Source of the DNA: Candidatus Bathyarchaeota archaeon
GTDB lineage: Archaea; Thermoproteota; Bathyarchaeia; Bathyarchaeales; Bathyarchaeaceae
Assembly (NCBI GenBank): GCA_963697165.1
Contig: CAVOMX010000011.1
Coordinates: 32,001 to 96,000 of the forward strand
Reading direction: 5' to 3'
DNA length: 64,000 bases
This document shows positions 569 to 58,716 of this stretch, one piece after another (within the stretch, counting starts at the first letter, position 1; every line of letters starts with the position of its first letter). The position numbers were made by a program, and so were the translations under genes. The notes beneath the pieces were generated by a model. The model saw only the letters and a list, made by a program, of their open reading frames with translations, ran no database searches and was not told the DNA's origin.

Positions 569-1568
569 CTACAATGAGTTGTCCCAGTGTTTATCTACCC
601 ACTCTTTTCCCTTGATTTCAGTATCGACTTTCCTGTAGACGTTCATGCAGCCCTGTAGCATATTCAAAAAGGGCGTGCCAAAGCAAAGACGGGTGAGAAA
701 ATAGTTTTTGTATACCCAACGTTGAGCCCTAACAGCAAAATCTGCATATGGAAGCAGGAATGGGCGCTTCACATCCTCAATTTTTTCGCCTATGATTTGA
801 GTCTCTGTTTCTTCACGTTGATAATGCTTGTCAATGAACTTTAGGTAACTGATGTCAGCCCAGTCAATACCCATGATTTCACAGCATAACTTGTCCATGG
901 CAAGAAGGTCACTACTTGTTAGGACAAGATTCATTGGTATGACGATTCCCCTGTTGGGTCCGTTTCCTTCCATGGCAAATGTAGCATCCATAACAACAAA
1001 CTTGGGTTTCAGCAGAACAAGCAAATCATGCATAACCATGTCAAAGTTAGGGTGAAGAAAAATGCGCCGATTATTAGGTATGCAGCCGAACAGGTTCTTT
1101 ATGGCGCCGCTATATGATTGTGAACTCGTGAGTCTTCATAACTGGAAGGTCAACAATAGAGTCTGCTTCGACAAGAGTTTTGGGCAACGGAAAATTTTTC
1201 AAGCAAAAGGTTTCAGGATTCTGAACATTCACGATTTCGTCGTTAGATAGGTTAATTGTCTTTCCGCCAGCCTTGGCGACTATCTTTTCTACGCCAGTCA
1301 TTGCCAGAGCATCGTCACAGCAGTAGTTGTAACCATTGGATTCACCAACAACAACCTCTTCAGCCCTGTCCCGAAGAAGGCTAACCAAATGAAAGAGAAG
1401 CTGAGGATTTGTTACAGCCCCCGGAATATAAGTTTTGGAGCACAAGTTCGGTTTAATGAAAACCTTGCCCCGAACATGCTTATCCCAATCCGCAGCTTTC
1501 AGCGCCTCTCGTAAAGCAGACTCCAAACCATCATCAGTTCTGAAGATGCCCATCTTCACCTTCTTCAT
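569..1568 (-). CDS. DUF362-family Fe-S protein, split by one apparent indel near 1110
   Basis: ORF 1110-1568 (VFIKPNL, AVTNP, GES, LPVMKTH) joins ORF 569-1039; removing one base gives KTHEFTIYSGAIKNLFGCIP, followed by MEGNGP..G and SSDLLAMD. Confidence 0.85.
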
Positions 1569-1571
1569 TTG

Positions 1572-2985
1572 TCAGTCACCCTCCGAGAGCTTTTTGATGC
1601 AGCCGGGGTCAGACATAAGATAGTCATCATGATATGAGAAAGCTCTTGCTCTACATCCGCCGCAAACAAACTTGTACTCACACTTGCCGCAACGCCCTTT
1701 CAGTTTTTCTCTGTCTCTGAGATCCTTGAATACTGAAGAGTTAAACCAGATATCTTTTAGTCGTTCCTTCTTTAGATTTCCAACTACTAGGGGCATGAAG
1801 ACACAGGGTTGAACATCCCCTTCGGGAGAGATGGCACAATAGAATCGTCCAGCTCCACAGCCTCCAATGAAGTCGGCTAGAGCCTTGGCTCTTTTGCTTA
1901 TCTTAGCGGCTTCCATGTGCGCAAGAGGCATTATGATATCTTTTTGGTGTTGGAGATTGAGACTGCAAAGCCACCCGAGCGAGCTGCGGAGTTGTACTCA
2001 ATATAGCAATTTTATGGTCCTCAGACAACTTTTTAGTGAAGAAACGTAGAAGCTCCTCACGCTCCTGAGGAGAAAGATCAGCCGCCACTATGTCTTTACC
2101 TCTACCTGTCGGCACAAAATTGAATAATGTGAATCTGTCAATTCCCATGTTCTCAGCCATTTCAAGCACTAAAGGAATTTCTTTTAGGTTATTTTTGGTG
2201 CCTGTTATTGCTACACAGGTACAGATGTTTTTGTCCATACAATTCTTTAATCCCTGTAACGTCTGCTCAAAAGCGCCAGTTTTTCCCCTGAAGAAATCAT
2301 GCGTCTTGGCGTTAGCGCCATCAAGGCTAACTTCCACGTAATGGACACCAATTTCCTTGAGTTTTCTAACGTTCTCTTCGTTAAGCAGGGTCCCATTTGT
2401 TGCTAAAGAAACATATAGTCCCGATTCAACAGCGTGACGTGCAACATCAAAGAAGTCTTTTCTCATCAAGGGTTCACCCCCTGAAAAGGCTAAAGAGGTA
2501 ACGCCGAAATCTGCCAGTTGATCCACAACCTTCATGGCATCCTCGGTAGAAAGCTCCATCTTTGAAATGCTGCCGGAGTCCGAGTAACAGTGCTTACATT
2601 TGAGATTACATTTGTATGTGAAGTTCCATACCACAAGGAAAGGTGCATGAACCTGTATGGGACGATTGAAACCAAACTCAGCAAAACCGGATACTATGCT
2701 GTTTATGGCTCTTCGGGTGTACGAGTCTGCAAAAAGTTTGGAAACACGGCTCTTTTCAACGGCTAATGCCTTTTGTATGAAACCTATCCAGAATCCTATG
2801 ACTCCAGCGTAAAGGCCACAGGAGAAACAAAAGGAGCATTTCTTGCCAGCGTAAGTATCCAGTGCGGTTTCAAGTGGGGTCCTGTTACATTTTTGGCATG
2901 CGGTCAAAGTGGTTTTCAGCATCCATTTTACGGGTGGCGTCTTTAGAACAGCGTTCCATAGTCGTTCGTTTGTCAACAAGTCCAT
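1572..2985 (-). CDS. Radical SAM/SPASM protein with Cys-rich N-terminal extension, split by an indel in an A5 run near 1943
   Basis: [36 protein letters not shown] part [34 protein letters not shown] in ORF 1572-1931; N-terminal CQKC and CSFCFSC. Confidence 0.88.
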
Positions 2986-3261
2986 TGGAATCTTTCCAGA
3001 GGGATGGTTTTAAGATACAATTAAAGTTAGTAGTGGAAACGGTAAAAATAAACTTACCGAGATAAAGAGCCAGACAAAACGTGCAACGTAATCGTGTGGC
3101 GGCTACAGCAAAAAGTTGGAGCCAACCAGTCAAGGGGCACCAGTATTCATCAAGATTTTGTGTTAAAAGTGGTTAGACTCTAATAATAGGTAATATCGAC
3201 AGATTTATGAGGAGGAGTCAGCCCTAACTTTCTAACTAAACTTTAGTTGGGTCGCTTTTAA

Positions 3262-4569
3262 ATGACAGATAATAACGGGGATAAATCGCAACCCTATGAA
3301 GAAGTAGAAAACTGGCCACCCTACACTTACACAGAATATCCAGAGGTTACAGCCGAGAACATTCGCACCTTCACAGAATTTTTGAATACTGAAAACGAAG
3401 TCGGCCTAAAAATGGAGCTGCAACCGTGGGTGTCTTTCTGTGACTCCAAATGCAGTTTTTGCTATTTCCCGAATGAAAGCTTTTCGAGACCCATTATGGC
3501 GCCATATGTTAAGGCTCTAAAGAAAGAGTTGAAAATGTATGCAAAAACCCGCTATATACAAACCAGCGTTTTTGACGAAGTGGTTTTGGGCGGTGGAAGT
3601 CCCACCGTGTTGGATGCAGACCAGCTAGTTGATATCCTATCATTCTGTAAAGAGAACTTCAACCTAACTGATGATGTTATGGTTAAGGTTGCTGGATGCA
3701 CACATAACCTTACTGTGGAGAAACTGAAGGCAATTTCAGATTTCGCTAACAGAGTGGATGCCAGATGCACCCAAATTGATATTGGTGTGCAGACGTTTGA
3801 TAATAAAATAAGAAAAATATTGAATATTGTTGATAGCGCAGAGGATGCATCAAAGGTTATTAAAACTGTGCGTGAAATGGGGATTTATGCCTGTATTGAC
3901 CTGATGTATAATCTTCCTGGAGAGACCATGGATACTGTCAAGAAAGATGTTGAAACTGCAATGGCATTAGAGCCTGAAGGGATTGATTATTATGCACTTA
4001 GCATACATCCAGAAACTCCTCTGCAAAAACAGGTCAATTCTGGAAAGGTGCCGGACTTAGCGGATTCAGAAACAGAGAAAAAGATGTACATAGAAGCGTA
4101 TGAACTGTTCAAGAAAGGAGGCTATAAACCGACAGGGCATAGCCGCTTCTCTTACGTACAAGAGCATTTTACCGAATCTTGTGTTGCAGGATGGCCTTGG
4201 GCGGGACAGCTTACAACTGGTTCCGGCTGTTTCATGGGTTATCTTGGGCCATTTTCGTATTTGAACATCGAGCCTGCACGTGCTTACATCGATTTTGTCT
4301 CTAAAGGAGCTTTCCCAATAGCGAAACTTTCAGTGGACTCCAAAGAGGATACAATGAAAAAGGTAATGACACGACTGTACGTCCGTCAGCCCGTGGACAA
4401 AATCAAATTCAAGAAAGAATTTGGCAAGACACCTGAAGAAGCTTTCCCAGATGCAATAAAACGATTAGTGAGCAAAGGTTTGATTGAGGTTGACAACAAG
4501 GAAATACGAGTAACAGAAAAGGGCGACCTGTGGAGATACAACATCGTATGGGAGTTCTGTGAAAAGTAA
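3262..4569 (+). CDS. HemN-like (class C) radical SAM protein
   Basis: YTEYP, FCDSKCSFC, GGGSPT, IGVQTF, DLMYNLPGET and a HemN_C-like tail (VTEKG). Confidence 0.85.
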   Translation: MTDNNGDKSQPYEEVENWPPYTYTEYPEVTAENIRTFTEFLNTENEVGLKMELQPWVSFCDSKCSFCYFPNESFSRPIMAPYVKALKKELKMYAKTRYIQTSVFDEVVLGGGSPTVLDADQLVDILSFCKENFNLTDDVMVKVAGCTHNLTVEKLKAISDFANRVDARCTQIDIGVQTFDNKIRKILNIVDSAEDASKVIKTVREMGIYACIDLMYNLPGETMDTVKKDVETAMALEPEGIDYYALSIHPETPLQKQVNSGKVPDLADSETEKKMYIEAYELFKKGGYKPTGHSRFSYVQEHFTESCVAGWPWAGQLTTGSGCFMGYLGPFSYLNIEPARAYIDFVSKGAFPIAKLSVDSKEDTMKKVMTRLYVRQPVDKIKFKKEFGKTPEEAFPDAIKRLVSKGLIEVDNKEIRVTEKGDLWRYNIVWEFCEK

Positions 4570-4705: not shown

Positions 4706-5935
4706 ATGCTAACTGTGACGTTTAATGTTTTGCCGCTTGAAGCAAAATCGGATGTGATAACAGTTCCAGATGAATATTCCTCAATTCAAGAGGCCATTAA
4801 CAATTCAAAATCAGGAGACACTGTTTTCGTTAAATCTGGGATCTACTTTGAGCACATAGTTGTCGACAAAAATGGTTTGAGACTTGCTGGAGAAAACAGG
4901 GATACAACAATAATTGATGGTGCCGGAACAGGCAACACAGTTTATGTGGAGGCAAACAATACTGAGGTAAGTGGCTTCACTGCACAGAATAGTGGCTGCA
5001 ACTTCACTGAAAGTGGAATTTACCTTAACAGTTTGTTCAACACATCTATTTCCAACAACAAAGTAAGCAGCAACCATCTTGGCGTTTACCTGTCTTCGTC
5101 GCCTAACTGTGTTCTCAGAGATAATAACATGACAGGTAACTTCTATAATTTTGGTGTTTCCGGACACAATCTTCAAGAATACATTCATGACATAGATGTT
5201 TCGAATATTGTGGATGAAAAACCCATTATTTACTGGGTTAACCAAACCAACAAGCAGCCTCCAGCCAATGCTGGATATGTAGCTATCATTAACTCCACAA
5301 AAATCACTGTTGAAAACTTAACATTAACAAAGAATTGGCAAGCGGTATTACTTGCATACACCACAAACTCAATTATCAAAAACGTCACAGTTACATCCAA
5401 CATGGATGCTATATGGCTAATAGAGTGCTCTAACTGTGTGGTTTACGGCAATAACGTAAACGAAAATAATTGGGGCGGCATCGCACTGGTAAATTCTTAT
5501 CTTTGTTCTGTTCAGTGCAACAACGTAAATAGCAATAAAGAGTATGGAATTTTCCTATCTTACTCCTCAGACAACATATTTTACCATAACAACTTGAACA
5601 ACAATAAAAGACAGGTTTGGCTTTACGGGGTCAACAACAATGTTTGGGATGCGGGCAATCTAATCGGCGGCAACTACTGGAGCAACTATAACGGCACAGA
5701 CAGTAAAGGAGACAACATTGGGGATACACCATATATCATCGATTCAGACACCAAAGACAGTTACCCACTTATGCAGCCTTGGATAATTCTGCCTCCCGAA
5801 GTCTCACCAATAAGCAGTGTGGTATATCTCATTACGGGGATAGGGACTATAATTGCACTTATTATAGGTATATACCTATTGAAACACCGAAAACGATCCT
5901 TTACTGGCGGCAAAATCCGACATACTGAAGAATAA
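4706..5935 (+). CDS. Parallel beta-helix (NosD/CASH) surface protein with C-terminal membrane anchor
   Basis: ITVPDEYSSIQEAIN..GDTVFVKSGIY, Asn-rich repeats, GGNYWSNY.G.D, DSYPL, C-terminal TM plus basic tail; the frame stays open upstream with hydrophobic residues, so the true start may be earlier. Confidence 0.85.
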   Translation: MLTVTFNVLPLEAKSDVITVPDEYSSIQEAINNSKSGDTVFVKSGIYFEHIVVDKNGLRLAGENRDTTIIDGAGTGNTVYVEANNTEVSGFTAQNSGCNFTESGIYLNSLFNTSISNNKVSSNHLGVYLSSSPNCVLRDNNMTGNFYNFGVSGHNLQEYIHDIDVSNIVDEKPIIYWVNQTNKQPPANAGYVAIINSTKITVENLTLTKNWQAVLLAYTTNSIIKNVTVTSNMDAIWLIECSNCVVYGNNVNENNWGGIALVNSYLCSVQCNNVNSNKEYGIFLSYSSDNIFYHNNLNNNKRQVWLYGVNNNVWDAGNLIGGNYWSNYNGTDSKGDNIGDTPYIIDSDTKDSYPLMQPWIILPPEVSPISSVVYLITGIGTIIALIIGIYLLKHRKRSFTGGKIRHTEE

Positions 5936-5953
5936 AAGGAGAGGGGAGATAAA

Positions 5954-6664
5954 ATGAAGAAACCCAAAGAGCTGATAAAGCTGATACTATTAGTAATGAT
6001 AGTATCTGTTTTCTTGTTTTACCTCAGTGTAGCCGTGTATGGTTGGGACAATTGGGGTTTCGCGATTCTAAACATCATATTTTTTGAAATCTTCGTTTTA
6101 TTTACTCAAGTTAGAAAGAGGCTGGCACGCCTTCCCACAAGCATTTACGTGGCATTCATATTTGCATTATATGCTGAAATGTATGGATTCCCTTTAACGA
6201 TGTACATTTTCACTTGGCTCTTTGGATACAATAACGTGTATACTTTGGGACAACTTCTTGCAGGAGTAATAGGAGAAAACTTGTTTGCCATAATTTTTCA
6301 CATAATCATATTGCCAGTCTCGAGCATAATCATGTTAATAGGGATACTTTTGATCATCTTTGGTTGGAGAAAAATTTTCAAGGCCAAAGGAGAACTTGTG
6401 ACAACGGGCATCTATGCATATGTTCGTAATCCACAGTATCTAGGAATTTTGTTACTCACGTTTGGCATGAACATTCAGTGGCTTACTATTCTTACGCTCT
6501 TGTTGTGGCCCGCCCTCGTTATTGTATATTATCGACTTGCCAAAGAAGAAGCAAAAGAGATAGAGAAGAAATTCGGAGAAGAGTATCTGAAATATAAGCA
6601 GAAGGTTCCCATGTTTATACCGCGGTTACAAATAAGGAAACATGCACAAACTGGTTTGGACTAG
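5954..6664 (+). CDS. Isoprenylcysteine carboxyl methyltransferase/PEMT-family integral membrane methyltransferase
   Basis: Multi-TM; LVTTGIYAYVRNPQYLG and EE..EKKFGEEYLKYKQKVPMFIP motifs. Confidence 0.85.
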   Translation: MKKPKELIKLILLVMIVSVFLFYLSVAVYGWDNWGFAILNIIFFEIFVLFTQVRKRLARLPTSIYVAFIFALYAEMYGFPLTMYIFTWLFGYNNVYTLGQLLAGVIGENLFAIIFHIIILPVSSIIMLIGILLIIFGWRKIFKAKGELVTTGIYAYVRNPQYLGILLLTFGMNIQWLTILTLLLWPALVIVYYRLAKEEAKEIEKKFGEEYLKYKQKVPMFIPRLQIRKHAQTGLD

Positions 6665-6791
6665 AAGCAAAGTCAGTTATGTAAGTTTTGGATATTTCAG
6701 TTCCATAAAAATGATTGATGTTTTGATTCAACAGAGTTAAATTTAAAAAGACTTATCTGAAGTTCCATCATTATTACTATTATGAGCATAA

Positions 6792-7943
6792 ATGAACCGA
6801 AGAAACGTTTTGGTTGTCCTTTTTTGTTCTCTGCTGATTGTTTCCCTTGCATTGCATTATGTTTTCCTTGTTAAAGATTCACCGAAAGGTGAGCCACTAG
6901 AGGTTTTTGTTGGAGTTGATGTAGCTTACGACAACATTGCAGAAATTGAAAGTCTTGCTAACGAAATCAGCAATTACACAAATCTCTTCGTGATCGGTTG
7001 CACCGGCATATCATATAACATCACGCAGCTCTACGAAACGTGTCAATATGTTTTCGAAAAAGGCTTTTCGTTCATAGTTTACTCTGACATGCCTCCTAGA
7101 TTGGAATGGTTTGTATGCTGTTATCTTGATTGTGGCAATCAATGGGGTGAAAAATTTCTGGGATTATATGCTTTTGATGAAGGAGGCGGAAGGCAGTTGG
7201 ACCTTAAAATACCTAGACCTTTTCGTGTTGATGAAGCAGACAACTACACTGATGCCGGAACCAAATTTGTAAATAGTGCAACTGAGCTCCTGAACTGGTA
7301 CTGCCAAGGTTTCAATAGTTCTATGAATTTTCCCTTGTTTACTTCAGACTATGCTCTTTACTGGTTTGACTACAAAGCGGGATATGATGTGGTCTTAGCA
7401 GAGTTTGGCTGGAATTACAGTAGACAATTGAATGTAGCACTCTGCAGAGGGGCAGCTACAGTTCAAAACAAGGATTGGGGAGCAATGATTACTTGGACAT
7501 ATAATGAGCCTCCGTATATTGAATCAGGCGAAGAACTTTACGATGACATGATTTTAGCATATGAAAATGGCGCAAAATATATTGTAGTATTTGACACCAA
7601 CAAAGAATATATCCATGGGATTTTGGAAGAAGAACATTTAGATGCTTTAAAACAATTTTGGCAATACACCCAAGACAATCCCAGAACAACTACTGTAACA
7701 AATAACAGAGTTGCATACGTTCTTCCAAAAGATTATGCATACGGTTTTCGAGGACCAAACGATAAAATTTGGGGCCTATGGGAGGCTGACGATTTTGCAT
7801 TCGAACTATGCACAAACCTTGGCAGTCTACTAGAACAATATGGAACCACATTAGACATAATTTATGATGATGGATTGAATTCTAGCAACACAAACTTATA
7901 TAGTAGACTAATATTTTGGAACGAAACAGTCTACGATACATAA
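6792..7943 (+). CDS. Secreted or membrane-anchored conserved hypothetical protein
   Basis: 383-aa ORF with N-terminal hydrophobic segment and aromatic-rich soluble domain (PLFTSDYALYWFDYKAGYDVV, WGAMITW). Confidence 0.7.
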   Translation: MNRRNVLVVLFCSLLIVSLALHYVFLVKDSPKGEPLEVFVGVDVAYDNIAEIESLANEISNYTNLFVIGCTGISYNITQLYETCQYVFEKGFSFIVYSDMPPRLEWFVCCYLDCGNQWGEKFLGLYAFDEGGGRQLDLKIPRPFRVDEADNYTDAGTKFVNSATELLNWYCQGFNSSMNFPLFTSDYALYWFDYKAGYDVVLAEFGWNYSRQLNVALCRGAATVQNKDWGAMITWTYNEPPYIESGEELYDDMILAYENGAKYIVVFDTNKEYIHGILEEEHLDALKQFWQYTQDNPRTTTVTNNRVAYVLPKDYAYGFRGPNDKIWGLWEADDFAFELCTNLGSLLEQYGTTLDIIYDDGLNSSNTNLYSRLIFWNETVYDT

Positions 7944-7957
7944 GTACGTCAGCGTTG

Positions 7958-9031
7958 TTACTCGCGAAGCGCTTGTGGAATGTAAGCGCATGCGGGATCG
8001 GATTCGAAGATGTCTCCTGTGTAGTATTCGGCTCGTGTTCTGCAGCCGCCGCATATCTCGCGGTATTCGCATATTCCACATTTGCCTTTGAGGTTGCGTT
8101 TGTCTCTTAGCTTCAGATAGAATTCGTCGTGTTGTAGGTCATTCCAGATTTCTCTGAGACTTTTATCTTTCAGGTTAGCCAATTTCAGATGTTCATTAAA
8201 TCCGCAGGGTTTAACGTCTCCATTCGGAGATATGCTCACGTAGTGGCCGTCCATAGTGCATTTACCCAAAAAATCGTTTGCGTACCAGTCCCAGAAATTG
8301 TGCATTCCCCTATCTCTGACTATACGGGCATAGAATGGACTATACACTTTGATGTCAACCTTGCCCTTGTACTCTTGATACAAATCGTAAACATGATTCC
8401 ATAGTGATTCATATTCTTCAGGCGAAGGAGCAAGTTCAACATTATATTTTCCGTTACCTACGGGAACGTAGTTGTGAATAACCACACGTTTAGCATCATA
8501 CTCGTCAGCTACGTTGACTAGATAATCCATTTCTTTAAGGTTAAGTTTTGTAACTGTGGTTACCAGACAATCTAGAAGCCCTACTTTTGACAAGTTTTGA
8601 ATTGCAGAGAGGGCTTTTTTATGTTCACCTTTTCCCCGAAGTTTGTCTTGTACTTCTTCAGGGCCATCAAAGCTAATGGAGGTCATGACGTTTTCTTTTA
8701 TGAGCTTGTTATAAGTATCGCCTTCAACAAAAAGGCCGTTTGTAATCAAGCTTACATTCATGCCCAATTGGTTTGCGTGATGAATTGGTTCAAAAATGTC
8801 TCCACGCGTAAGTGGTTCGCCGCCACTCAATCCAAACCATGTGGCGCCAAAATCATAAATCTCATCTACTACATGCAAGGCGCCTTTAACATCCATTTCG
8901 TCCTCGGCTGGAATCTTAGGAAGGTCTCCACCTCGAAAACTACAATACATACAATTGAGGTTACAGCCATGAGTGCATCGCCAAACCATAATAAACATAG
9001 GTCCTTTAGTTTGCAGGTGAATCAACCTCAT
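7958..9031 (-). CDS. Radical SAM/SPASM protein (AhbD/NirJ-like)
   Basis: VWRCTHGCNLNCMYC, SGGEPL, TNG, ISFDG; SPASM GKC..NGDVKPC..KGKCGICEYREICGGCRTRA..DPAC. Confidence 0.9.
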   Translation of the reverse strand: MRLIHLQTKGPMFIMVWRCTHGCNLNCMYCSFRGGDLPKIPAEDEMDVKGALHVVDEIYDFGATWFGLSGGEPLTRGDIFEPIHHANQLGMNVSLITNGLFVEGDTYNKLIKENVMTSISFDGPEEVQDKLRGKGEHKKALSAIQNLSKVGLLDCLVTTVTKLNLKEMDYLVNVADEYDAKRVVIHNYVPVGNGKYNVELAPSPEEYESLWNHVYDLYQEYKGKVDIKVYSPFYARIVRDRGMHNFWDWYANDFLGKCTMDGHYVSISPNGDVKPCGFNEHLKLANLKDKSLREIWNDLQHDEFYLKLRDKRNLKGKCGICEYREICGGCRTRAEYYTGDIFESDPACAYIPQALRE

Positions 9032-47988: not shown

Positions 47989-47998
47989 AACGGTTCTA

Positions 47999-48663: not shown

Positions 48664-50964
48664 GTGCGAAGATTAAAACTATCAACTATTGAACTGATTT
48701 TCATACTAATTTCCGTATCCATGTTATGTTCTATCACATTTTACCAAATGTCCACAGCAGGAATACTACCAGGCAACGACCCTGGAGTACACCTTGGAAA
48801 ATCACAAAAAATCGTAATCGACCAAAGAGTCACATACAGTGCAGTCCCATGGTATCCCCCCCTATTTCACACAATACTCGCAATGCTCCAAATATTAGCA
48901 GGAACCCTAGACGTCATAACAGCTGCATTTATATTAAAAATGCTAATCGCAACACTCAACATCCTAATCCTATTATCCACCTACCTGCTGTGCCGAAAAT
49001 TATTCGGAACAGGCGTCGCAGTTGCAGCATCCGTCTTTACGATTTTGTCAGTTCCACTTTCTGAAATGATCTTCTGGGGAGGCTATGCAAACTTTCTGGG
49101 TTTAGCATACATAGCATTCATTTTTTATATAATGAACAAAGACATACAAGTTTACCTTAAAATGGGACTCCTATTTGTTGGATCATTCACCATCGTATTG
49201 ACACATCAACTTGCCACCTTCGTCTTCATTCTAATGTTCATTCCTGCTTTTCTAGTCAACAGAACAAGCGGCAAAAAAAGAAAAAACCTAGCATTACTCG
49301 GAGTTGTTATTGGCGGAGGCTTAGCACTGCTGGCATGGTACGCAAGGCTGTTAATCGAGTATTCCAGCATGATTATTGAGCATCTCTTTTTTGCAATGCA
49401 AGAGAACGTTTACAACATACCCGAAGTATGGTTTGACGCATTAATCAGAAACAATTTTGGGGAATCACTATTTTTGGCGTTAGCAGGCATTCCCTTGACC
49501 TTCATCTTACTAAAGAAAAAGAGAATGTGGGAGGCATTAGTATTAATTTTTTCGTGGATTGCCATTCCCTTTCTTTTGTCTCAGTCATACCTTTTTGAGC
49601 TGTACTTACCATACATTCGTTTCGTCTACTTTTTTGCCACACCAATAGCCATTCTCGCAGGAGTATTCACCTACAGTCTCACAAAGATACCCGAATTCGT
49701 CGAGAAGAAAATCGCCTCAAACAACAGAATAAAACAAACAATCATGAAGGCTACCAAAGTTTTCACTCTGACAATAATAATTGCGTTATTCATCATACAA
49801 GGCGCCTTCTTTCTACAAAGAACCGAAACATATCCACAATTCTATGAAAGAGGGTCAATCTCAAGCTACAGTTCGGGTCTTTGGATAAAAGAACATTCAC
49901 CATCAGAAGGAACAATTGTTACAGCAAGAAGCCCGGGGTCATTGTTCTCCATCTTTTCGGGTCATCAAACAATTGAAGAAACAAACCCTTATTATTCCAG
50001 AACCGCAGTTGCCGAATCAGTATTGTATAGCTTCTATGAGATAGAAAACAGTCGCACGCTCATTCGAGAGTATGCGCATGCAACCCCAAACGCAGGACAG
50101 GAAATTTATGTCCCAATTCATAACATTTGGAAGAGAGGCATCAGCATAACTAACCAAAATGCAAGCCTGATTTATATTGATCCGCTAGGCAAGTGGGTTA
50201 CAATTCCGCTATCCGAAACAGAGGAATCGATTCACTGGGTTATGAGAACCCCTGATGAGGCACAGCTGGTTTCAGAATATATTCACGATATTTTCACCGT
50301 CGAGAAGATTGTTACGTTTTCGAGCAACAGTTCAGTAATTGATGTTAGTTGGGTTATTGAGGCTCACAAAAACTTAGCAGACGTCAAACTGACAGTTAGC
50401 AATGATATGGATCCATCTTTAGATTTTAAGGAAGCCATTGTTCCAGGAGTTCTTGAATGGCAGAATCCTTGGGACAACTCCACATACGTTCACGAGAACG
50501 GTCTTTGGACTGTTATAGAGGGTTCTTTCGATATGGTAGACGGAAATGTTGTAGCGATACTTGATCCAAAAAATGATGTGTTAGCGGTTTTCGAATTCCT
50601 TGACAGACCAGATTGGCTTATCCTTGGCGCCCTAGAAAACCGGTTCATAGACGTTTTGAGGCTCCGATACGAATTAGGCAATTTGAATGCAAACGAAAAA
50701 AAGGAAATCTCATGTTCAATACTTCTTTGCACCTCAGACTTCCAAGACATCAAACAGTGGGCAGCATCGGATTTGCAGCAACAATATGATTCAACAACAA
50801 AACTAAAGATCGAAGAAAGAGACTATGCCACATACATTGAAGAGTATGACATCAAGTTTGTGGTCTTTGACACAAAACAGGTTCTTACAGACAAAGTGGC
50901 ATCTCCTGACCTAGACAGAATTTACGACAACAACAGAACCACAATATACACCACAAAAAGATAG
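48664..50964 (+). CDS. GT-C-like multi-TM membrane protein (paralog C, intact)
   Basis: PGNDPGVH, WYPPLFH, EMIFWGGYAN, LTHQ, RFVYF, LWIKEHS, EEYDIKFVVFD. Confidence 0.75.
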   Translation: MRRLKLSTIELIFILISVSMLCSITFYQMSTAGILPGNDPGVHLGKSQKIVIDQRVTYSAVPWYPPLFHTILAMLQILAGTLDVITAAFILKMLIATLNILILLSTYLLCRKLFGTGVAVAASVFTILSVPLSEMIFWGGYANFLGLAYIAFIFYIMNKDIQVYLKMGLLFVGSFTIVLTHQLATFVFILMFIPAFLVNRTSGKKRKNLALLGVVIGGGLALLAWYARLLIEYSSMIIEHLFFAMQENVYNIPEVWFDALIRNNFGESLFLALAGIPLTFILLKKKRMWEALVLIFSWIAIPFLLSQSYLFELYLPYIRFVYFFATPIAILAGVFTYSLTKIPEFVEKKIASNNRIKQTIMKATKVFTLTIIIALFIIQGAFFLQRTETYPQFYERGSISSYSSGLWIKEHSPSEGTIVTARSPGSLFSIFSGHQTIEETNPYYSRTAVAESVLYSFYEIENSRTLIREYAHATPNAGQEIYVPIHNIWKRGISITNQNASLIYIDPLGKWVTIPLSETEESIHWVMRTPDEAQLVSEYIHDIFTVEKIVTFSSNSSVIDVSWVIEAHKNLADVKLTVSNDMDPSLDFKEAIVPGVLEWQNPWDNSTYVHENGLWTVIEGSFDMVDGNVVAILDPKNDVLAVFEFLDRPDWLILGALENRFIDVLRLRYELGNLNANEKKEISCSILLCTSDFQDIKQWAASDLQQQYDSTTKLKIEERDYATYIEEYDIKFVVFDTKQVLTDKVASPDLDRIYDNNRTTIYTTKR

Positions 50965-50984: not shown

Positions 50985-52067
50985 TTACCTTTCACGTAGA
51001 CTTTTTGGAATATACGCGCATGAAGGATCAGACTCGAAGATATCACCAGTGTACATTTCTGCTCTGGTTCGGCATCCACCGCAAACGTCATTGTATTCGC
51101 ATACGCCACATTTGCCCTTCAAGTTTTTACGGTCTCTAAGCTGTATTGCAAGCTCTGATTTTTGCAGTTCGCCCCAGGTTTGCTTCAACGATTTATTCTG
51201 GATGTTTCCCAGTCGGATACGGTCATTGAAGCTGCATGGAATAATGTCTCCGTTTTCGATTACGCTCATGTATTTGCCTGCGATTGCGCATTTGCCAAGG
51301 AAGAAGTTCTTGAACCAATCATCAAAGTTTGGGATTCCCCGCTGTTTAGCAACCCGCGCATAGAATGGACAATAAACGTTGACTTCAGGTTTCCCTTTAT
51401 ACTTCATGCTCAAATCGTAGACGTCGTTCCAGATTCTTTCGTACTGCTGTGGCGAGGGGTTCTTGGCGAGGTGCTCTTTTGTGTTGTTGAATGGAACGAA
51501 TCCGTGAATCACAACCCACCGTGCGCCATTTGCTTCAGCCAATTTGATGATGTGCTCCATATCTTCGGCGTTGACGTTATTACGGTCTTGGTCGACGTTA
51601 GCAAGGGTTGCAACAAGACAGTCCAGCAGTCCCGCTTTGGAGCTCTTCTCTATTGCCGAAACGGCTTTTTCGTATGCACCTTTTCCGCGTATGGCATCGT
51701 TGATTTCTTCGGCTCCATCAATACTTACTGAGATTCTAACCCCATTTCGGACTAGGACGTCGAAGATTTTGTCGTCAAGAAAATAGCCACTGGTTATTAG
51801 GCTCACATTCAAGCCTACTTTTTTGGCGTACTCAATTATTTCGGGGAGATCCTTTCGTTGAAGAGGTTCTCCGCCGCTTATTCCAAGAAAGGTTGCCCCA
51901 AAATCATAGATTTCATCTATTATATGCTTGGTTTCTTTGGTTCCAAGCGCGTCAGAGGCTACGGGAGTTGATGCAAAACCGCAGTGCAAACAGTTGCTGG
52001 TGCAGGCTTGTGTACATCTCCAAGGCAAAATAAACAGGGGTCCAGTTTGTCTCACAATACTCACCAT
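50985..52067 (-). CDS. Radical SAM/SPASM protein (AhbD/NirJ-like)
   Basis: GPLFILPWRCTQACTSNCLHC, SGGEPL, VSIDG; GKC..NGDIIPC..KGKCGVCEYNDVCGGCRTRA..DPSC. Confidence 0.9.
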   Translation of the reverse strand: MVSIVRQTGPLFILPWRCTQACTSNCLHCGFASTPVASDALGTKETKHIIDEIYDFGATFLGISGGEPLQRKDLPEIIEYAKKVGLNVSLITSGYFLDDKIFDVLVRNGVRISVSIDGAEEINDAIRGKGAYEKAVSAIEKSSKAGLLDCLVATLANVDQDRNNVNAEDMEHIIKLAEANGARWVVIHGFVPFNNTKEHLAKNPSPQQYERIWNDVYDLSMKYKGKPEVNVYCPFYARVAKQRGIPNFDDWFKNFFLGKCAIAGKYMSVIENGDIIPCSFNDRIRLGNIQNKSLKQTWGELQKSELAIQLRDRKNLKGKCGVCEYNDVCGGCRTRAEMYTGDIFESDPSCAYIPKSLRER

Positions 52068-53504: not shown

Positions 53505-54797
53505 CTAGGTTGAAGATGTTGTTTGTTTTTCTTTGTTGTTCTTTGTTTCTAAGTTGTTGATGAAATTTACTAGTTCGCGATTGCTCTTCACGGTTATGGC
53601 GCCTTTGTTTTTGAGTTTCTTTAGGTATTCTGTGGCTTTGCCGTTCGTGAAGTCTCTCTCTTCGATGAACCCCTCTTCAAGCAGGATGGTTGGTATTCCT
53701 TTCTCCAAAGCTGTTTCTGCAGCGTCGAGGTTACGAAGGTTTCCTTCACCAAACTGGGTCGGCGTTACCACAAGAACATCGACTTTACTTATCATCTGCA
53801 GGTTTGCCTTGTGTGCTTCGTCTGTTATCGGAGAAAATGGAGCCTCGTTTGTTGTTGGAACAGACAGCAACTGGGCAGTCTCGTGGTCTGTATCTAACAG
53901 GTTGAGGACTCCAGCAGTTACACGGTAACCCTCATCCACCAGAGTCTTCATCACGGGGCTACCAGTTCCGCCTCCACAAATCAAGTGAACAATAATGTTC
54001 TTCGGTATCAGAATTATGGGTCTTGAGATGGGAATCACATGAAGAGAACCCGTAACAGGATGCTTCTTAACGATAGTGTCAACACCAAAAACTTTTTTGA
54101 CGTTTTCGCTTGTAAGAGTCTCATCCGATTTGCCAACAGCAACAATCTTACCGTCCTTTAAAAGAATAATAGAATCACAGTAGCGGGCAGCCAAGTTAAA
54201 ATCATGAAAAACTGCGACAATCAACAACTTCCGTGTTTCGCACAGATGTTTGATCAGGTCCATTATTTCCAGTTGGTTGCCGATGTCCAAGTGGGTTGTT
54301 GGCTCGTCTAACAAAAGAATGTTGGGTTCCTGAGCTAGGGCACGAGCAATTATCACCCGCTGTATTTCTCCACCGCTGAGTTCGGTTACAGGTCGGTCAG
54401 CAAACTTCCAAGTGCGGGTTATCTCCATGGAATGCTTTGCAATCTCTAGGTCCTTTTTGCTTTCCATCTTGAACCGTGGCATGTGAGGATTTCGACCCAT
54501 AAGAACAACTTCAAGAGCAGTGAAATCGAAAGTTACCGGCGTAGACTGCGGAACCACCGCCAACTGTTTTGCAACATCCACAGTTTTCATGTCGTAAATG
54601 TTCTTTTCGTCTATCAGAATTGTTCCTTTCTTTGGCTTTAGAACTCTGCTTATGCTTTTTAGTAGCGTAGTTTTTCCTGAGCCGTTGGGACCAAGAATGC
54701 CTAAAAACTGTCCGCTTTCAACAGCAAAACCAATATCCTTCAGGACATCAACGGAACCATAAGAACAGTTAACACCATCAATTGTTAATGTCACCAT
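53505..54797 (-). CDS. btuD: Cobalamin/Fe-siderophore ABC transporter ATPase with C-terminal extension
   Basis: GPNGSGKTT, LSGGE, LLLDEPT, HD.NLAARY; extra domain VHLICGGGTG..GVLN..DTD. Confidence 0.85.
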   Translation of the reverse strand: MVTLTIDGVNCSYGSVDVLKDIGFAVESGQFLGILGPNGSGKTTLLKSISRVLKPKKGTILIDEKNIYDMKTVDVAKQLAVVPQSTPVTFDFTALEVVLMGRNPHMPRFKMESKKDLEIAKHSMEITRTWKFADRPVTELSGGEIQRVIIARALAQEPNILLLDEPTTHLDIGNQLEIMDLIKHLCETRKLLIVAVFHDFNLAARYCDSIILLKDGKIVAVGKSDETLTSENVKKVFGVDTIVKKHPVTGSLHVIPISRPIILIPKNIIVHLICGGGTGSPVMKTLVDEGYRVTAGVLNLLDTDHETAQLLSVPTTNEAPFSPITDEAHKANLQMISKVDVLVVTPTQFGEGNLRNLDAAETALEKGIPTILLEEGFIEERDFTNGKATEYLKKLKNKGAITVKSNRELVNFINNLETKNNKEKQTTSST

Positions 54798-54811
54798 CTC
54801 TTTTAGTCACC

Positions 54812-55891
54812 TTATACTGAGTATCCTCTCTTTCGTCTGCGAAGTAGATATATGAAAAACGGACCTCCTGAAAGTGCTGTGATAACTCCAACAGGTGCTT
54901 CGCCAGAACCCATTGCTATTCGTGCTATTGCGTCACAGAACATTAGAAAAGAAGCACCAACAACAGCGGAAGTGGGTAGGAGAATTCGATGGTCAGGACC
55001 TACTATAACTCGTGTCAAGTGTGGAATTATCAAACCAACGAAACCAATTAACCCACTAATAGAAACAGCGGCTGCGGTCAGGAGAGCCCCACAGATAAGC
55101 AATATCCTTTTCACTTTTTCTATTTCAACACCTAAATGCTGTGCTTGATCTTCTCCTAAAGCAAGAATATTCAAGTCGCGTGAATAAAGATAAGAAATGA
55201 CAATGCCAATAATTATGAGCGGCAAAATGGACCAAACTTTAGTCCAGTTTTCAGTAGATGATAGGCTTCCAATAAGCCAGAAAGTTAGTCCATGAAGAAC
55301 ACTTTCGCTGGCGATTACTTGCAGAAAAGTGACTATGGCACTTTGGAAGTAAGTTACCGCGATACCTGTTAAAAGCAACATTGTAACTGGAACTCTGGAA
55401 CCGTATTTAGATATGCTGTAAACAATAAGCACAGTAGTTAAAGAACCAACAAAAGCAAAGACTTGAACAGTGTTTACGCCAAAAAGGGATATTCCTATTC
55501 CAAGAACTAAGACAAGCGCTGAACCTAATGACGCACCCGACATAGCTCCAATGACGTAAGGGTCAGCCATTGGATTTCTGAATATTCCTTGATATATTAC
55601 GCCTGCAGTCGCCAAGGCTGCACCAACCAGAGCACCACAGATAACTCGCGGGAGTCTGATTTGCATAATTATTACTTCAGCAGTTTGAGTGATATCTGAA
55701 GGCGCCACCAAATCTCCTAAGAAAGGAACGTTTTTGATCAGTATATTCAAAATGTCGCTAAAAGAAATAGGGGCGTAACCAAGGTTGAGTGATAAAATAA
55801 AAATAATTCCAAACGCAACTATAAGTATGACCAGATATAGCTTCCAGTGAGAAACGTGTCTTAAATGAGATGTTTTAGTGTCTGTTTTCAT
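54812..55891 (-). CDS. btuC: FecCD/BtuC-family ABC permease
   Basis: RLPR, Q.IFRNPMADPY..G, W.IGSL, LGE..A..LG, G.IGFVGLIIPH, PVG.ITA..GGPFF. Confidence 0.88.
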   Translation of the reverse strand: MKTDTKTSHLRHVSHWKLYLVILIVAFGIIFILSLNLGYAPISFSDILNILIKNVPFLGDLVAPSDITQTAEVIIMQIRLPRVICGALVGAALATAGVIYQGIFRNPMADPYVIGAMSGASLGSALVLVLGIGISLFGVNTVQVFAFVGSLTTVLIVYSISKYGSRVPVTMLLLTGIAVTYFQSAIVTFLQVIASESVLHGLTFWLIGSLSSTENWTKVWSILPLIIIGIVISYLYSRDLNILALGEDQAQHLGVEIEKVKRILLICGALLTAAAVSISGLIGFVGLIIPHLTRVIVGPDHRILLPTSAVVGASFLMFCDAIARIAMGSGEAPVGVITALSGGPFFIYLLRRRKRGYSV

Positions 55892-55937
55892 TTATGTTTC
55901 ACAAGTTATTTTAGGGTATAAAAAAGAGAGAGATATT

Positions 55938-57024
55938 TTAGGGTTGTCCAAAGATTTCTGGATGAACCATCTTTGCAATAGCTTCTAGCGCGTCAACGAG
56001 TCTTGGACCTGTCCTAGAGATTATGTCTGCATTGATTTCGTAGAGTGCATCGTTCTGAACTGCACTTATTGAGTTCCATCCAGGACGGTCTCCCACAGCC
56101 TCTATGGTGTCATAGAAGTTATCTCGCCCCATGTACATGTCTGGGAAAAACATCACGTCAGGATTCTTTTCGATAACTGCCTCAGAACTAATTTGTGGCC
56201 AACTTGTGGTTGCATCGTTGAAGATGTTTTCTCCACCTGCCAAAGTTATCAGTTCGTCAATGAATGTGTTTGGGCCTACGCTCATGAGGGGTTCGTTCCA
56301 AACTTCATGGTATACTGTTGGAGTAGTAGTTGCACCCATTACTTGATTTGCTACGGCATCTATTCTTGCTCTCATGTCTGTAACGACGGCGCTAGCTTCA
56401 GCGTCTTTGTAAGTTGCTCGTCCCACCAAAAGGATATCCTGAAGAATAGCGTCAAGGGTTCTGGCCTTCTATTACTAAGACATTATATCCTAGGTCATTT
56501 AGAGTCGCAGCAGCGTCTAGGCTTCCAGTGCTTGCAAGAACTAGGTCAGGCTCTAATGCCACTATTGGTTCCACTGATGGTCCGTAATAATTTCCGATGC
56601 TGCTCATGTTGCCTGCTTCGACCCATGCTGTGAAATTGTAAGGATAGTCACAGTAGTCCGTAACACCCACAACCATGTCGCCTGCTCCAATAAGAAACAG
56701 TGTTTCAGTGTTGCTTGGTGCTAACGACACTATTCGTTCTGGAGCCGAAGTCAAGGTTACTACGTTACCCATAGCATCAACTAGCGTGACTTGCTGGTAT
56801 TCGGTGATTTGTTCTTGCTGTTCAGCAATAGTTTCTTGGTAGTCGGTGATCTGTCCTTGTATTGTAGTTAGTGTTCCTTGGATGTCACCTAGTGAGTTTT
56901 CTAATGAACTGTTGGAATCTGTCAAGTCATTGATTTGTCCTTGAAAAGTGACGAGTCCATAAGTTGCAACAACTAAGGAAACAACCGCTAAAATCGCTAT
57001 GATATATGTGATAGTTTTGTCCAT
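55938..57024 (-). CDS. btuF: Cobalamin-binding protein BtuF with N-terminal TM and coiled-coil stalk; one extra base near 56463
   Basis: PERIVSLAPSNTE.LF..GAG..VVGVT.YCDYP; repaired EGRTLDAILQDILLVG; TFI.ELI..AGG.NIF, RPGW..I.AV, R.GPRLV. Confidence 0.85.
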
Positions 57025-57039
57025 TGATTTCTACATCCA

Positions 57040-57062
57040 TTAGGATGGATAATCCATCCTAA
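57040..57062. promoter_or_regulatory. Perfect 23-bp palindrome (candidate operator) between the TATA box and the btuF start
   Basis: TTAGGATGGAT-A-ATCCATCCTAA; minus-strand TTTTATATA at 57076-57068; btuF ATG at 57024. Confidence 0.7.
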
Positions 57063-57139
57063 CAGCATATATAAAACTTGCGACAAAACCAGACAAAAAA
57101 GGCTACAAACATACAATAAACACGGAAGTCACACAAAAT

Positions 57140-57784
57140 TTACACAATCGACACGTTAAGATAAGCCATATCCTTCCCAACCTTCCTCTTCACAGACGCT
57201 ACCTTGAACGATTTCGAGTATAACGGACACTCAAGAACTAGTGTATGAAATTCGCCGTTTTCACCCAAAGGATCAACTTTTCCAATCTTTGACAGAAACT
57301 CGGCACCCGTCTCTTCACTGATAACGAAACCCAGCCACTCTTCCCCTAAGTCTTTCAAGTTCACACCAGTAATCAATGCCTTGAATCCTGAACCGAAGAT
57401 TTCATCGAAAAGCTCGGATGTGTCTCTCCCGTATATTGGCTCAAGCAGCTCCAAACCAATCTTCTTACAGACAGCTTCAAAAGCCGTCACATGCGCCTCA
57501 ACATCAATATCCCCAGCCACCAAAGCGTCAACATTAAGGCTTTTTAGCGCCTCAACCAAAGCTTCCTCTTTATGACAATCAACAATTGTCAGATGTTTAC
57601 CCATGGATTTTGCTAATATCTTCAGAGATTCCAAGTTCTCCGCATGAGGAGAAGGCCAAGGAAGAGTTGGAAGTAAAGTTATAAGATGATCAACATTGAC
57701 GCCTTGTTTTTCGACAAGTTGCACGGCATATAGTGAATCTTTACCACCAGAAAATAGAGCAGCAGCCTTCATGGAAACAAGCAT
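57140..57784 (-). CDS. DUF71/Dph6-like PP-loop ATP pyrophosphatase (second copy)
   Basis: ALFSGGKDS, LVAGDI, EPIYG, WLG, DPLGENGEFHTLVLECPLY; probable ATG 57772. Confidence 0.85.
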   Translation of the reverse strand: MLVSMKAAALFSGGKDSLYAVQLVEKQGVNVDHLITLLPTLPWPSPHAENLESLKILAKSMGKHLTIVDCHKEEALVEALKSLNVDALVAGDIDVEAHVTAFEAVCKKIGLELLEPIYGRDTSELFDEIFGSGFKALITGVNLKDLGEEWLGFVISEETGAEFLSKIGKVDPLGENGEFHTLVLECPLYSKSFKVASVKRKVGKDMAYLNVSIV

Positions 57785-57822
57785 CCTCTACAAACTCTTC
57801 AAACAAACATTTGAGGAAATAT

Positions 57823-58716
57823 TTAAGAAATTGGGTTAATCATTTTTTCCAGTAGTTCTAAGGCTTCAACGAGTCTAGGTCCGGGTCTGGAAATAAAGTC
57901 TCGTGGAACCTCATAGAGTCTGCCGTCTCTAACAGCAGTTATGTTCTCCCAGCCCAGCCGTTTCTTGACAGCCTCGAAGCTTCCCCAAAATCTGGGAACA
58001 CCTGGAATAACTGGAAACACGATGATGTCAGGGTTCCGCTTTATGATGTCTTCTGGTTGGATTACTGGCCACTCTGAAACTGCGTCTTCAAAAATGTTTG
58101 TTCCGCCAGCCAAGTTGATTAGGTTACCAATCCATGTTTTTGAATTCACGCTGATGTAAGGTCTGTTCCAGACCTCAAAATATACGGTTGGCTTATGAGG
58201 CAATGTCTTCGAGTTTGCTATTACAGCGTTTATCTTATGTTTCAGGGTTTCCACAAGGTCGCTGGCTTGGGCACTGTTTCCAGTTACATTTCCCACCAGC
58301 AGGAGGTCGTCGAGAACATTATCCATACTGTGCGGAGATAAGGTCAAAACGTTTAATCCTAAACTTTTGAGTCTGTTGGCGACTTTTGTTGTCAGTTCAC
58401 ATCTGCGGCTGCAGTTCGTCTTGCAATTGTTTGTCTTCACTGTACACTGGGCTGTGGAAACCAGAATTAGGTCAGGCTTCAAGTCCACAATAGCCTCAAC
58501 TGACGGGTTCCAGTAACCTCCAACCCGCGCTATTTCGTCTGTTTCAATCTTTGCCTCTAGTTCAGCGGGATAGTTGCAGTGGTCTGTTACTCCAACAACT
58601 TTGTCGCCAGCACCAACAGCAAACAGCATCTCCGTGTTGCTGGGAGAAAGAGACACTATCCTTTCTGGATGAACCGTTAGATCCGTCACATAACTATAAT
58701 CATCTGCCATCTGCAA
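57823..58716 (-). CDS. BtuF-like cobalamin-binding protein without signal/TM segment, with Cys4 insertion
   Basis: PERIVSLSPSNTEMLFAVGAG..VVGVT..CNYP, AGG.NIF, RPGPRLV; insert CTVKTNNCKTNCSRRC; in-frame TAG about 11 codons upstream of the start. Confidence 0.82.
   Translation of the reverse strand: MQMADDYSYVTDLTVHPERIVSLSPSNTEMLFAVGAGDKVVGVTDHCNYPAELEAKIETDEIARVGGYWNPSVEAIVDLKPDLILVSTAQCTVKTNNCKTNCSRRCELTTKVANRLKSLGLNVLTLSPHSMDNVLDDLLLVGNVTGNSAQASDLVETLKHKINAVIANSKTLPHKPTVYFEVWNRPYISVNSKTWIGNLINLAGGTNIFEDAVSEWPVIQPEDIIKRNPDIIVFPVIPGVPRFWGSFEAVKKRLGWENITAVRDGRLYEVPRDFISRPGPRLVEALELLEKMINPIS

Follow-up and report, generated by a model that had tools for sequence, protein, structure and literature searches.

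Several steps of tetraether lipid formation rely on radical S-adenosylmethionine (SAM) chemistry: Tes couples archaeol tails, Gms bridges the chains within glycerol dialkyl glycerol tetraethers (GDGTs), Gmm, Cgm and Pgm methylate and Ted desaturates, and the genes cgm and pgm, neighbours of aromatic-degradation genes, show a response to amphiphiles (10.1101/2025.10.20.683597). Many Bathyarchaeota carry several Gmm2 copies, at least four of them in 29 cases, and part of these copies share a single scaffold (Garcia et al., 10.1101/2023.10.20.563219), and each Bathy-6 genome has 7-20 B12-radical SAM genes, for which a role in lignin metabolism has been proposed; btu-cbiZ salvage has also been noted (Nesbo et al., PMC11697101). 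A lignin O-demethylase locus has been described with the gene order mtgC-mtgA-membrane gene-mtgB_1-mtgB_2, where MtgB_2 demethylates guaiacol onto MtgC (Yu et al. 2023, PMC10989822). Here we analyse a stretch of 64,000 nucleotides (C11:32001-96000, "the window") from a 1.99-Mb Bathyarchaeial genome that is 81% complete, in which radical SAM genes are interleaved with cobamide genes and with counterparts of mtgA and mtgC.

With moderate confidence, we read this locus as a tetraether-tailoring battery that shares its cobamide supply with a lignin O-demethylase, in a neighbourhood conserved in six Bathyarchaeial genera. The starting points are direct observations on gene content, clustering, the family membership of a second Tes (Tes2), the orthology of a gms-like gene and of mtgA/mtgC, and co-distribution. 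In what follows, G numbers denote the genomes compared (G000 being the source genome), L numbers denote DNA regions, f9 is a second Bathyarchaeial family and g1 the genus of the source genome.

Clustering of radical SAM genes

The 59 open reading frames (ORFs) of the window were scanned against Pfam and NCBIfam. All kinds of genes listed in the original prediction, which had seen a cobamide-centred supercluster, were found at their place, including 12 radical SAM genes (seven B12-binding, four SPASM, one HemN-like). The window contains 12 of the 38 radical SAM (PF04055) matches of the genome, where 1.2 are expected, and 8 of its 14 B12-binding matches. Upon random placement of the radical SAM genes, 12 within any 64 kb were found in 0 of 20,000 trials (maximum 10). 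For the complete congener G005, which has 13 of 39 matches within 64 kb, the result was likewise 0 of 20,000, and chance clustering is thus ruled out.

The left edge at position 569 that had been assigned to the cluster is a window limit, as the cluster continues for about 15 kb upstream (region L001). The term "island" does not hold in its mobile sense. The GC content is 0.409 compared to 0.414 genome-wide, tRNA genes were not found in the window, an integrase border was not detected, and there are 10 strand switches among 41 window genes. A mobile genomic island is thereby ruled out, and the ordinary GC content and the strand switches identify the cluster as a gene neighbourhood. It comprises at least 11 transcription units and is not one operon, which disagrees with the single pathway that had been suggested.

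A second Tes-type synthase and a Gms orthologue

An operon upstream of the window consists of the genes for an NAD-dependent epimerase, a UbiA/digeranylgeranylglyceryl phosphate (DGGGP)-synthase-like prenyltransferase (ubiA2, L001:8240-9097) and a 498-aa radical SAM protein (tes2, L001:9094-10590). Tes2 attains 506.7 bits against NF045702 and is thus above the threshold of the Tes (GDGT-MAS) family (450). It matches the structure 7TOL (GDGT-MAS, MJ0619) with an E-value of 1e-132, and the cluster ligands and Met/Tyr positions are conserved, as are all cluster-binding motifs of Tes upon alignment to 7TOL and to the housekeeping Tes1. In the congeners and in f9, the housekeeping tes is encoded elsewhere and scores about 680 bits, while the cluster copies score 460-510 bits. 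Within the same genomes, Tes2 and the housekeeping Tes are 40-44% identical and fall in separate clades, that of Tes2 having a support of 100. In a 50%-representative library of 1.84 billion representatives, no relative of Tes2 above 42% identity was found outside the two families. By family membership, Tes2 is likely a lineage-specific second tetraether synthase, the substrate of which may differ from that of Tes1. A split extra tes homologue was encountered in a cluster-less f9 genus (G032 C55:22620-24145, L085-L086).

UbiA2 scores below both curated cut-offs for archaeal DGGGP synthases (166.7 of 269 and 151.6 of 296 bits), as does the canonical UbiA copy (234.9 of 269 bits). The nearest solved relative of UbiA2 is a DGGGP synthase (E 3e-23), and UbiA2 represents a clade distinct from the canonical copy (FastTree, as for the cbiB, cobS, cobY and cobD trees mentioned below, with 8-18 rows each).

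The second carrier of the lipid assignment is a radical SAM/SPASM gene at 1572..2985 (minus strand), frameshifted in this assembly. Its product has an AhbD-like core behind an N-terminal extension of about 115 residues. Whole orthologues comprise 470-477 aa, above the length of 420 aa used to recognise Gms, and the AhbD model begins at residue 117-130. An AhbD-like core with an N-terminal extension of about 100 residues is the described anatomy of Gms, which is itself an AhbD homologue (Garcia et al. 2024, PMC11214058). The window protein is 77% identical to its orthologue in G024, which is UCC58939.1. This protein has been listed as a Gms homologue with 44.65% identity to Gms from M. okinawensis (E 3e-108; PMC11186832), inside the limits applied to that list (E <1e-50, >30% identity). 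The gene thus likely codes for an orthologue of the glycerol monoalkyl glycerol tetraether (GMGT) synthase Gms. In every genome mapped, it is directly followed by a gene for a DUF362 (Fe-S) protein (569..1568, minus strand, with a one-base break near 1117).

The original prediction had named tetraethers among three candidate substrates while holding that the substrate cannot be read from the sequence. Once Tes2, a UbiA paralogue and an orthologue of Gms are recognised, tetraether lipids become the best-supported substrate class, and it is the family membership of Gms and Tes that points to the substrate.

The remaining radical SAM genes without a B12-binding domain are a HemN/HutW-like gene (3262..4569, plus strand), a conserved cluster member, and three short SPASM paralogues. 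The one at 7958..9031 (minus strand) has no N-terminal extension and is about 50% identical to those at 12645..13997 (plus strand, conserved, real start probably near 12840) and 50985..52067 (minus strand). PDB searches with the HemN-like and gms-like proteins returned no close relative. A 98% identical copy of about 1 kb of the gene at 7958-9031 occurs elsewhere in the source genome (C8:10668-11705, L003), representing a recent duplication or strain mixing.

Seven B12-radical SAM enzymes

The seven B12-radical SAM genes are designated A (11301..12644, minus strand), B (18210..19588, plus strand, frameshifted), C (19840..21226, minus strand, one-base break at 20738), D (about 24126..25583, plus strand, three one-base breaks), E (25718..27115, plus strand), F (29093 to about 30483, minus strand, break at 30376) and G (30677..32161, plus strand). 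Their whole orthologues have 447-495 aa with B12-binding and radical SAM domains, in agreement with the domains and length (at least 400 aa) expected for Gmm. According to a quick tree (54 rows), A, C, D and E have one-to-one orthologues in both families, B and F have counterparts in f9, and G, which among the mapped regions occurs only in genus g1, is sister to D. The one-to-one relations indicate that these copies are old and have been retained. Recent tandem duplication is ruled out, as the paralogue groups are older than the family split.

B, C, E and F group in a single clade, which is sister to the family of a gms-adjacent B12 enzyme of G055, with 41% identity to that enzyme (E 1e-109 or lower); A, D and G fall outside. 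Judged by this proxy, the four are likely Gmm-like. Homologue searches started from 25718 and from the gms-adjacent pair of G055 returned no characterised enzyme among the 120 matches listed. Models for Grs, Cgm and Ted do not occur among the NCBIfam matches, and grs was not recognised in the cluster. A basic tail is found at the C-terminus of each of the seven enzymes (+5 to +10 within 45 residues); in the model of enzyme E (pLDDT 91.8) it forms two basic helices. A basic C-terminal tail is also described for membrane-bound Cgm (10.1101/2025.10.20.683597).

The radical enzymes might instead remodel the corrinoid or another tetrapyrrole, by methylation of the lower ligand as in BzaD/E or by side-chain removal as in AhbC/D, with the lipid genes being bystanders. 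The best NCBIfam names for the radical SAM proteins of the cluster are BchE, AhbD and HutW, amide ligases and hydrolases are abundant, and BzaCDE homologues are mentioned for a Bathy-6 B12 locus (Nesbo et al., PMC11697101). However, these scores are all far below the cut-offs (BzaD 113-136 of 450; AhbD 200-310 of 500), and no cluster protein reaches the curated NCBIfam cut-off for BzaD/E, HpnJ/HpnR, BchE, AhbC/D or MgmA. Moreover, an AhbD match is what Gms itself would give as an AhbD homologue, and BzaAB/F-type or AhbAB genes were not found in the cluster. We consider tetrapyrrole remodelling very unlikely. A double-AsnC gene of f9 that was inspected as a candidate for AhbAB scores as an Lrp regulator and was rejected.

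A surface glycan, built by GT2, GT4 and GT-C enzymes and carried by beta-propeller proteins, has also to be weighed as the substrate of the methylases. The window has six glycosyltransferase-like genes. Five of these lie within 569-58716, where all six had been placed: a GT4 gene that is paired with an Asn-synthase-like ATP-dependent amide ligase (35262..37544, minus strand), and a plus-strand group (40879..50964) with GT4 (43787) and three GT-C-like membrane proteins (40879, 44913, 48664). The sixth is the 3' part of a GT4 gene (2..568, plus strand) which continues into L001. The GT-C calls are based on weak matches (TIGR04154 with E 8e-12 for 48664-50964; DUF6541 with E 5e-21, in this case for the orthologue that G005 has of 40879), and one GT-C protein has a weak match of STT3 type. 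Four more glycosyltransferase-like genes are found upstream, and the nearest fold and PDB profile match is the sugar enzyme AprD4. Against this, the AprD4 match is generic (22% identity) and the fold search with enzyme E gave generic B12-radical SAM folds only (19-23% identity), B, C, E and F group with gms-adjacent enzymes, and the GT-C genes are the least conserved of the cluster (25-34%), with distant f9 counterparts for 40879 and 48664. A glycan substrate thus ranks even slightly below tetrapyrrole remodelling in our view.

In this assembly, five of the 12 radical SAM genes, the DUF362 gene, a gene for an RnfD fusion and btuF are frameshifted, while all are whole in congeners. Extra bases at 1117, 20738, 23053, 23124, 23584, 24340, 24664 and 25194 are absent in contigs of up to four other public runs, and at 30376 such contigs have a base added. 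Contigs of other runs that span the break in 18210-19588 or in 1572-2985 show one gap, with no position listed. The frameshifts are therefore most likely assembly errors and the genes intact in life, and a pseudogene graveyard is ruled out. In RNA run X20, short contigs fall on 21 of 30 and on 18 of 30 bins; as this run has neither a silent-stretch control nor strand information, it was not used as expression evidence.

The lignin O-demethylase genes

The MtrH-family protein and the corrinoid protein of the window had been regarded as part of the supply side. By comparison with the published genes they are MtgA (38380-39297, minus strand) and MtgC (39342-39767, minus strand, 141 aa), and together with a DUF1616 membrane gene (37614..39767 for all three, minus strand) they are orthologous to the published lignin O-demethylase locus. 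The published MtgC primer encodes the N-terminus of the 141-aa protein, the mass of which (14.95 kDa) compares to 15.2 kDa as derived from published concentration figures. In G005 and G003, which keep the published gene order, a following gene of 300 aa is matched by the published primer for MtgB_2. As primers, size and gene order match, the lignin O-demethylase locus lies inside the cluster. An ESM Atlas label for the MtgB family (GHL10-like) was overridden by the primer match.

The mtgA gene is present in 36 of 36 genomes from the six cluster genera, with two weak matches in 31 others, while the mtgB family occurs in 30 of 37 genomes from these genera and in none of the 31 others. The loci of G005 and G003 carry mtgB_1 and mtgB_2, and 14 of 16 congeners have mtgB. 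The source genome, at 81% completeness, has no mtgB match, neither at the locus nor elsewhere. Seven genomes have mtgA without any mtgB match (G000, G019, G024, G101, G106, G131, G166), which suggests another methyl donor or the reverse direction. It was considered that MtgA and MtgC feed a methionine synthase of MetE/MesA type for SAM regeneration; with no PF01717 match in five of five genomes, this was ruled out.

Corrinoid proteins usually carry the motif DxHxxG. MtgC has DVHLTP at this position and is devoid of a cap domain. A second small corrinoid protein of the source genome (C10, L094:6376-6816) is 64% identical to MtgC and adjoins the gene for a hybrid-cluster protein.

Cobamide uptake and finishing

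The window has a DUF71 ATP pyrophosphatase gene next to cbiZ (adenosylcobinamide amidohydrolase; 9144..11158, minus strand), cbiB (17088..18074, plus strand), cobS1 (39895..40683, plus strand), which belongs to the canonical clade and is above the TIGR00317 cut-off, and an ordinary archaeal cobamide uptake block with btuD, btuC, btuF (broken), DUF71 and a second btuF (53505..58716, minus strand). Region L001 adds cobD, cobY and cobS2 to its three GT2 genes, a second HemN-like gene, the epimerase gene, a DUF1616-like gene and GT4. The cluster copies of cobS (cobS2), cobY, cobD and cbiB each form a clade apart from canonical copies elsewhere in the same genomes; a canonical second cbiB was located in G005, G154 and G175.

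It had been proposed that cobamide genes accompany the radical SAM battery, and the distribution bears this out. A cobS gene occurs in 45 of the 78 genomes counted, and 43 of these belong to the six cluster genera. Two or more copies are present in 41 of 78 genomes, all within the six genera, and cobS2 is found at most 6 kb from tes2 in 34 of 39 genomes with Tes2.

This arrangement raises a more speculative possibility. CobD2, CbiB2, CobY2 and CobS2 might join the corrinoid, through an amino-alcohol phosphodiester, to the glycosylated UbiA2/Tes2 tetraether, giving a membrane-anchored cobamide or related conjugate which the radical enzymes tailor. We know of no molecule of such kind. Each of the four loop enzymes represents a cluster clade of its own, cobS2-cobY2 face the epimerase-ubiA2-tes2 operon, CobS2 scores 97-111 bits compared to 149-150 for CobS1, and a CbiA/CfbB-like amidase is inserted in the clusters of G005 and G003. 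Only one cobT was found, beside cobS1 in f9 and elsewhere in the source genome, so that CobS2 has no dedicated base activator. On the other hand, the sole cobY of genus g1 is the cluster copy (4 of 4 genomes) and therefore probably serves ordinary cobamide completion, and CbiB2 and CobD2 reach or approach the curated cut-offs. We regard an anchored cobamide as improbable. An equally long shot is that cobS2-cobY2, located beside tes2 and having no second cobT, attach the corrinoid to a non-ribazole partner.

The insertion that contains the amidase (an a,c-diamide synthase, with an accompanying methyltransferase) is at L006:7042-9180 in G005; it also occurs in G003, L026, L028 and L029 and is absent in the source genome.

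Conservation and co-distribution

Mapping covered 100 kb of G005 and of G003, two blocks of 60 kb of G024, 80 kb of G009, 26 loci with enzyme E at their centre, and 43-100 kb of five genomes from f9. Co-distribution was counted in 78 genomes of one order, leaving out 21 class-level genomes; the wider class was covered by homologue searches and individual regions.

The genes are kept together across two families. The gene set recurs with 45-65% identity and in shuffled order. In the regions of G175 and of G154, 42 of 62 core ORFs are matched (at least 35%), compared to 0 of 3 in the left flank, 0 of 7 in the btu block and 4 of 28 in the right flank. Tes2 occurs in 39 and enzyme A in 40 of the 78 genomes; 37 have both and 36 neither. 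The discordant genomes are two with Tes2 only (73% and 89% complete) and three with enzyme A only (58%, 86% and 92%), and among 64 good genomes one is discordant. Both mark the same 6 of 32 genera, while a sister genus (g17) and six f9 genera have neither. The same six genera from two families are marked by doubled cobS, mtgA and mtgB, with 24-26 other genera searched being free of the respective gene, apart from the two weak mtgA matches. In 20 of 37 genomes tes2 and enzyme A are on one contig, separated by 9-53 kb.

A class-wide system was rejected, as the regions at the best B12 matches of G074, G042 and G055 and at the split tes of G032 have no such cluster, and matches at the level of Tes2 are confined to the two families; plain gms-gmm-like pairs are found in G055 and G042. 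A 2.2-kb contig in a Gammaproteobacteria bin (L032) carries enzymes D and E with 71-85% identity and is probably misbinned Bathyarchaeial DNA.

The strongest competing explanation, which we nevertheless consider unlikely, is a loose neighbourhood of corrinoid users. Demethylase, salvage, lipid and glycosylation genes would have been co-gained by methoxy-consuming lineages without a joint pathway, and the paralogues would have unrelated jobs. The frequent strand switches and a gene order that is shuffled in every genome are as expected from this, as is the linkage of btu, cbiZ and DUF71, which is the ordinary salvage arrangement, and the loss of mtgB in 7 of 37 genomes that keep the remainder. 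Some clusters are also split: G024 has two blocks with about 170 kb between them, and in G009, G114 and G140 the tes2 block is away from the B12 array. However, a loose neighbourhood does not readily account for tes2-ubiA2-epimerase being retained within 6 kb of cobS2-cobY2 in 34 of 39 genomes, nor for gms-DUF362 following cobS2-cobY2 in G175, G154 and G162, while flanking housekeeping genes are not kept.

Some of these observations also count against a lipid-tailoring battery that shares its cobamide with the demethylase, and there are others. Besides the split clusters, tes2 and enzyme A are on different contigs in 17 of 37 genomes, and in G175 and G154 the array has no btu block next to it. 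G000, G019 and G024 retain the cluster with mtgA/mtgC in the absence of mtgB. The six genera may represent as little as one gain with several losses, so that the co-distribution does not amount to 37 independent cases. As to the enzymes, the Gmm-like label depends on the G055 proxy, and no substrate can be assigned to A, D and G, to the short SPASM trio or to the HemN-like protein, all of their family scores being far below the cut-offs. The basic tail is a subfamily trait, as a similar one is carried by C18, a B12 enzyme from outside the cluster. Finally, cofactor supply alone does not account for a second cobamide-loop set, and our reading as a whole is a prediction from sequence comparison.

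Proposed function

In the lipid-tailoring battery that we favour, UbiA2 and Tes2 would make a tetraether core separate from that of the housekeeping pair, and Gms would introduce the predicted inter-chain C-C bridge between two chains of this core. B, C, E and F would methylate at different positions, while A, D and G would perform other B12-radical chemistry, a candidate being backbone methylation to butanetriol tetraethers. Head-group sugars would be attached by the GT4, GT2 and GT-C enzymes. Low-potential electrons may be delivered at the membrane by DUF362, by an aldo-keto reductase fused to a ferredoxin domain (encoded together with a class I methyltransferase at 27145..29031, minus strand) and by an RnfD-like membrane protein fused to a two-cluster RnfC-like ferredoxin domain (22369-23706, minus strand), which is broken here, whole in G005 and a candidate for electron supply. 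Imported and re-finished cobamide would serve both the B12-radical SAM battery and MtgC. By analogy with the amphiphile response of Cgm and Pgm, the purpose may be a membrane adapted to the phenols which these cells demethylate. No other rnf gene occurs near the RnfD-ferredoxin fusion, which is present in two copies in G154 and L037.

Butanetriol tetraethers are a marker lipid of a Bathy-8 culture (review PMC12694404; PMC13003381). In the literature searched, no enzyme is named for the butanetriol step. That a backbone methylase is among A-G is plausible, although we put it forward tentatively, and the same degree of caution applies to A, D or G, taken alone, as the missing glycerol-backbone methylase. 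Four further B12 enzymes of the source genome lie outside the cluster, and the cluster is also found in f9; both points temper this idea. A dedicated second pathway leading to a heavily methylated and bridged glycolipid that CobD2-CbiB2-CobY2-CobS2 couple to a corrinoid, with A, D or G being also the butanetriol backbone methylase, combines these elements and is correspondingly improbable.

In sediments, Bathyarchaeia rank with the most abundant archaea. The cluster provides a short list of testable candidates for their unusual membrane lipids and narrows those for butanetriol formation to seven genes, and the published demethylase genes of the cultured Bathy-8 organism match this locus. If true, a second Tes that has a prenyltransferase of its own and a linked cobS paralogue would add a new branch to ether-lipid chemistry. 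It would also matter for the GMGT and methyl-GDGT proxies, both in peat and in marine sediment.

Other genes of the window

Strain-variable NosD-like, PEMT-like and further genes (4706..7943, plus strand) are not part of the core. They are absent in the G175 and G154 regions, and in run X3 one contig passes from 4569 directly to 7940, skipping the NosD-like/PEMT-like stretch. Among them, 6792-7943 codes for an unassigned 383-aa protein, of which the remainder of the genome has six or more paralogues. Conserved members are an amidohydrolase-3 protein (within 12645..15769, plus strand) and a secreted, C-terminally anchored PQQ-type beta-propeller protein (32368..35244, plus strand). A membrane protein of no known family is encoded next to the RnfD fusion (within 21442..23706, minus strand). 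A stand-alone TIR-domain gene (52359-53144, minus strand; PF10137, Cap12/Pycsar type, E 4.5e-37) is found between the last SPASM gene and btuD. It has no adjoining cyclase and is absent at that place in congeners.

Comparison with known systems

We found no published account of a second tes, of doubled cobS or of their link to mtg, although subscription papers and supplements, including the neighbourhood figures of PMC11214058, may hold part of this. The available passages of Nesbo et al. (PMC11697101) do not describe this cluster, and those of the B. tardum paper do not treat lipids or radical SAM genes. Multiple Gmm2 copies on one scaffold are already published, and the link to lignin demethylation was not found in the literature searched. 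The original prediction knew of no characterised pathway like this one; published gms-gmm clusters and multi-copy Bathyarchaeial gmm2 qualify that view.

The lignin O-demethylase (PMC10989822) agrees in gene order, primer-encoded N-termini and MtgC size. It differs in that the published passages do not place it in a lipid/cobamide cluster and in that mtgB is absent from the source genome. All genes of archaeal cobinamide salvage (BtuFCD, CbiZ, CbiB, CobD, CobY, CobS, CobT; DUF71-B12 subgroup, PMC3541065) are present in the source genome with the same linkage of btu-DUF71 and cbiZ, but here a second, diverged cobS (in f9 also cobY, cbiB and cobD) is tied to tes2. Compared to Tes/GDGT-MAS (MJ0619, PDB 7TOL), Tes2 is above the family cut-off and retains the motifs, yet it is a second, lineage-specific copy. 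Cgm, Pgm and Ted (10.1101/2025.10.20.683597), which could be compared by description, are Gmm-related B12-radical SAM enzymes that contact the membrane through the C-terminus, as is predicted for the present ones; Ted is from a Bathyarchaeon, and Cgm and Pgm have aromatic-degradation genes as neighbours. These are single enzymes of at least 495 aa, whereas those described here have 447-495 aa and no recognised hgs neighbour.

Clusters of gms-gmm(-grs), known from Thermococcus guaymasensis and further archaea (PMC11214058, PMC11186832), share with the present one the Gms orthologue and, going by the G055 proxy, Gmm-related B12-radical SAM genes. The Bathyarchaeial cluster, in which grs was not recognised, differs in having seven B12 enzymes that represent six or more old lineages, a second tes with a prenyltransferase, four further radical SAM genes, two cobS, a second clade each of cbiB, cobY and cobD, and the mtg locus. 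In summary, it is a real and conserved, much expanded variant of the gms-gmm arrangement with new parts.

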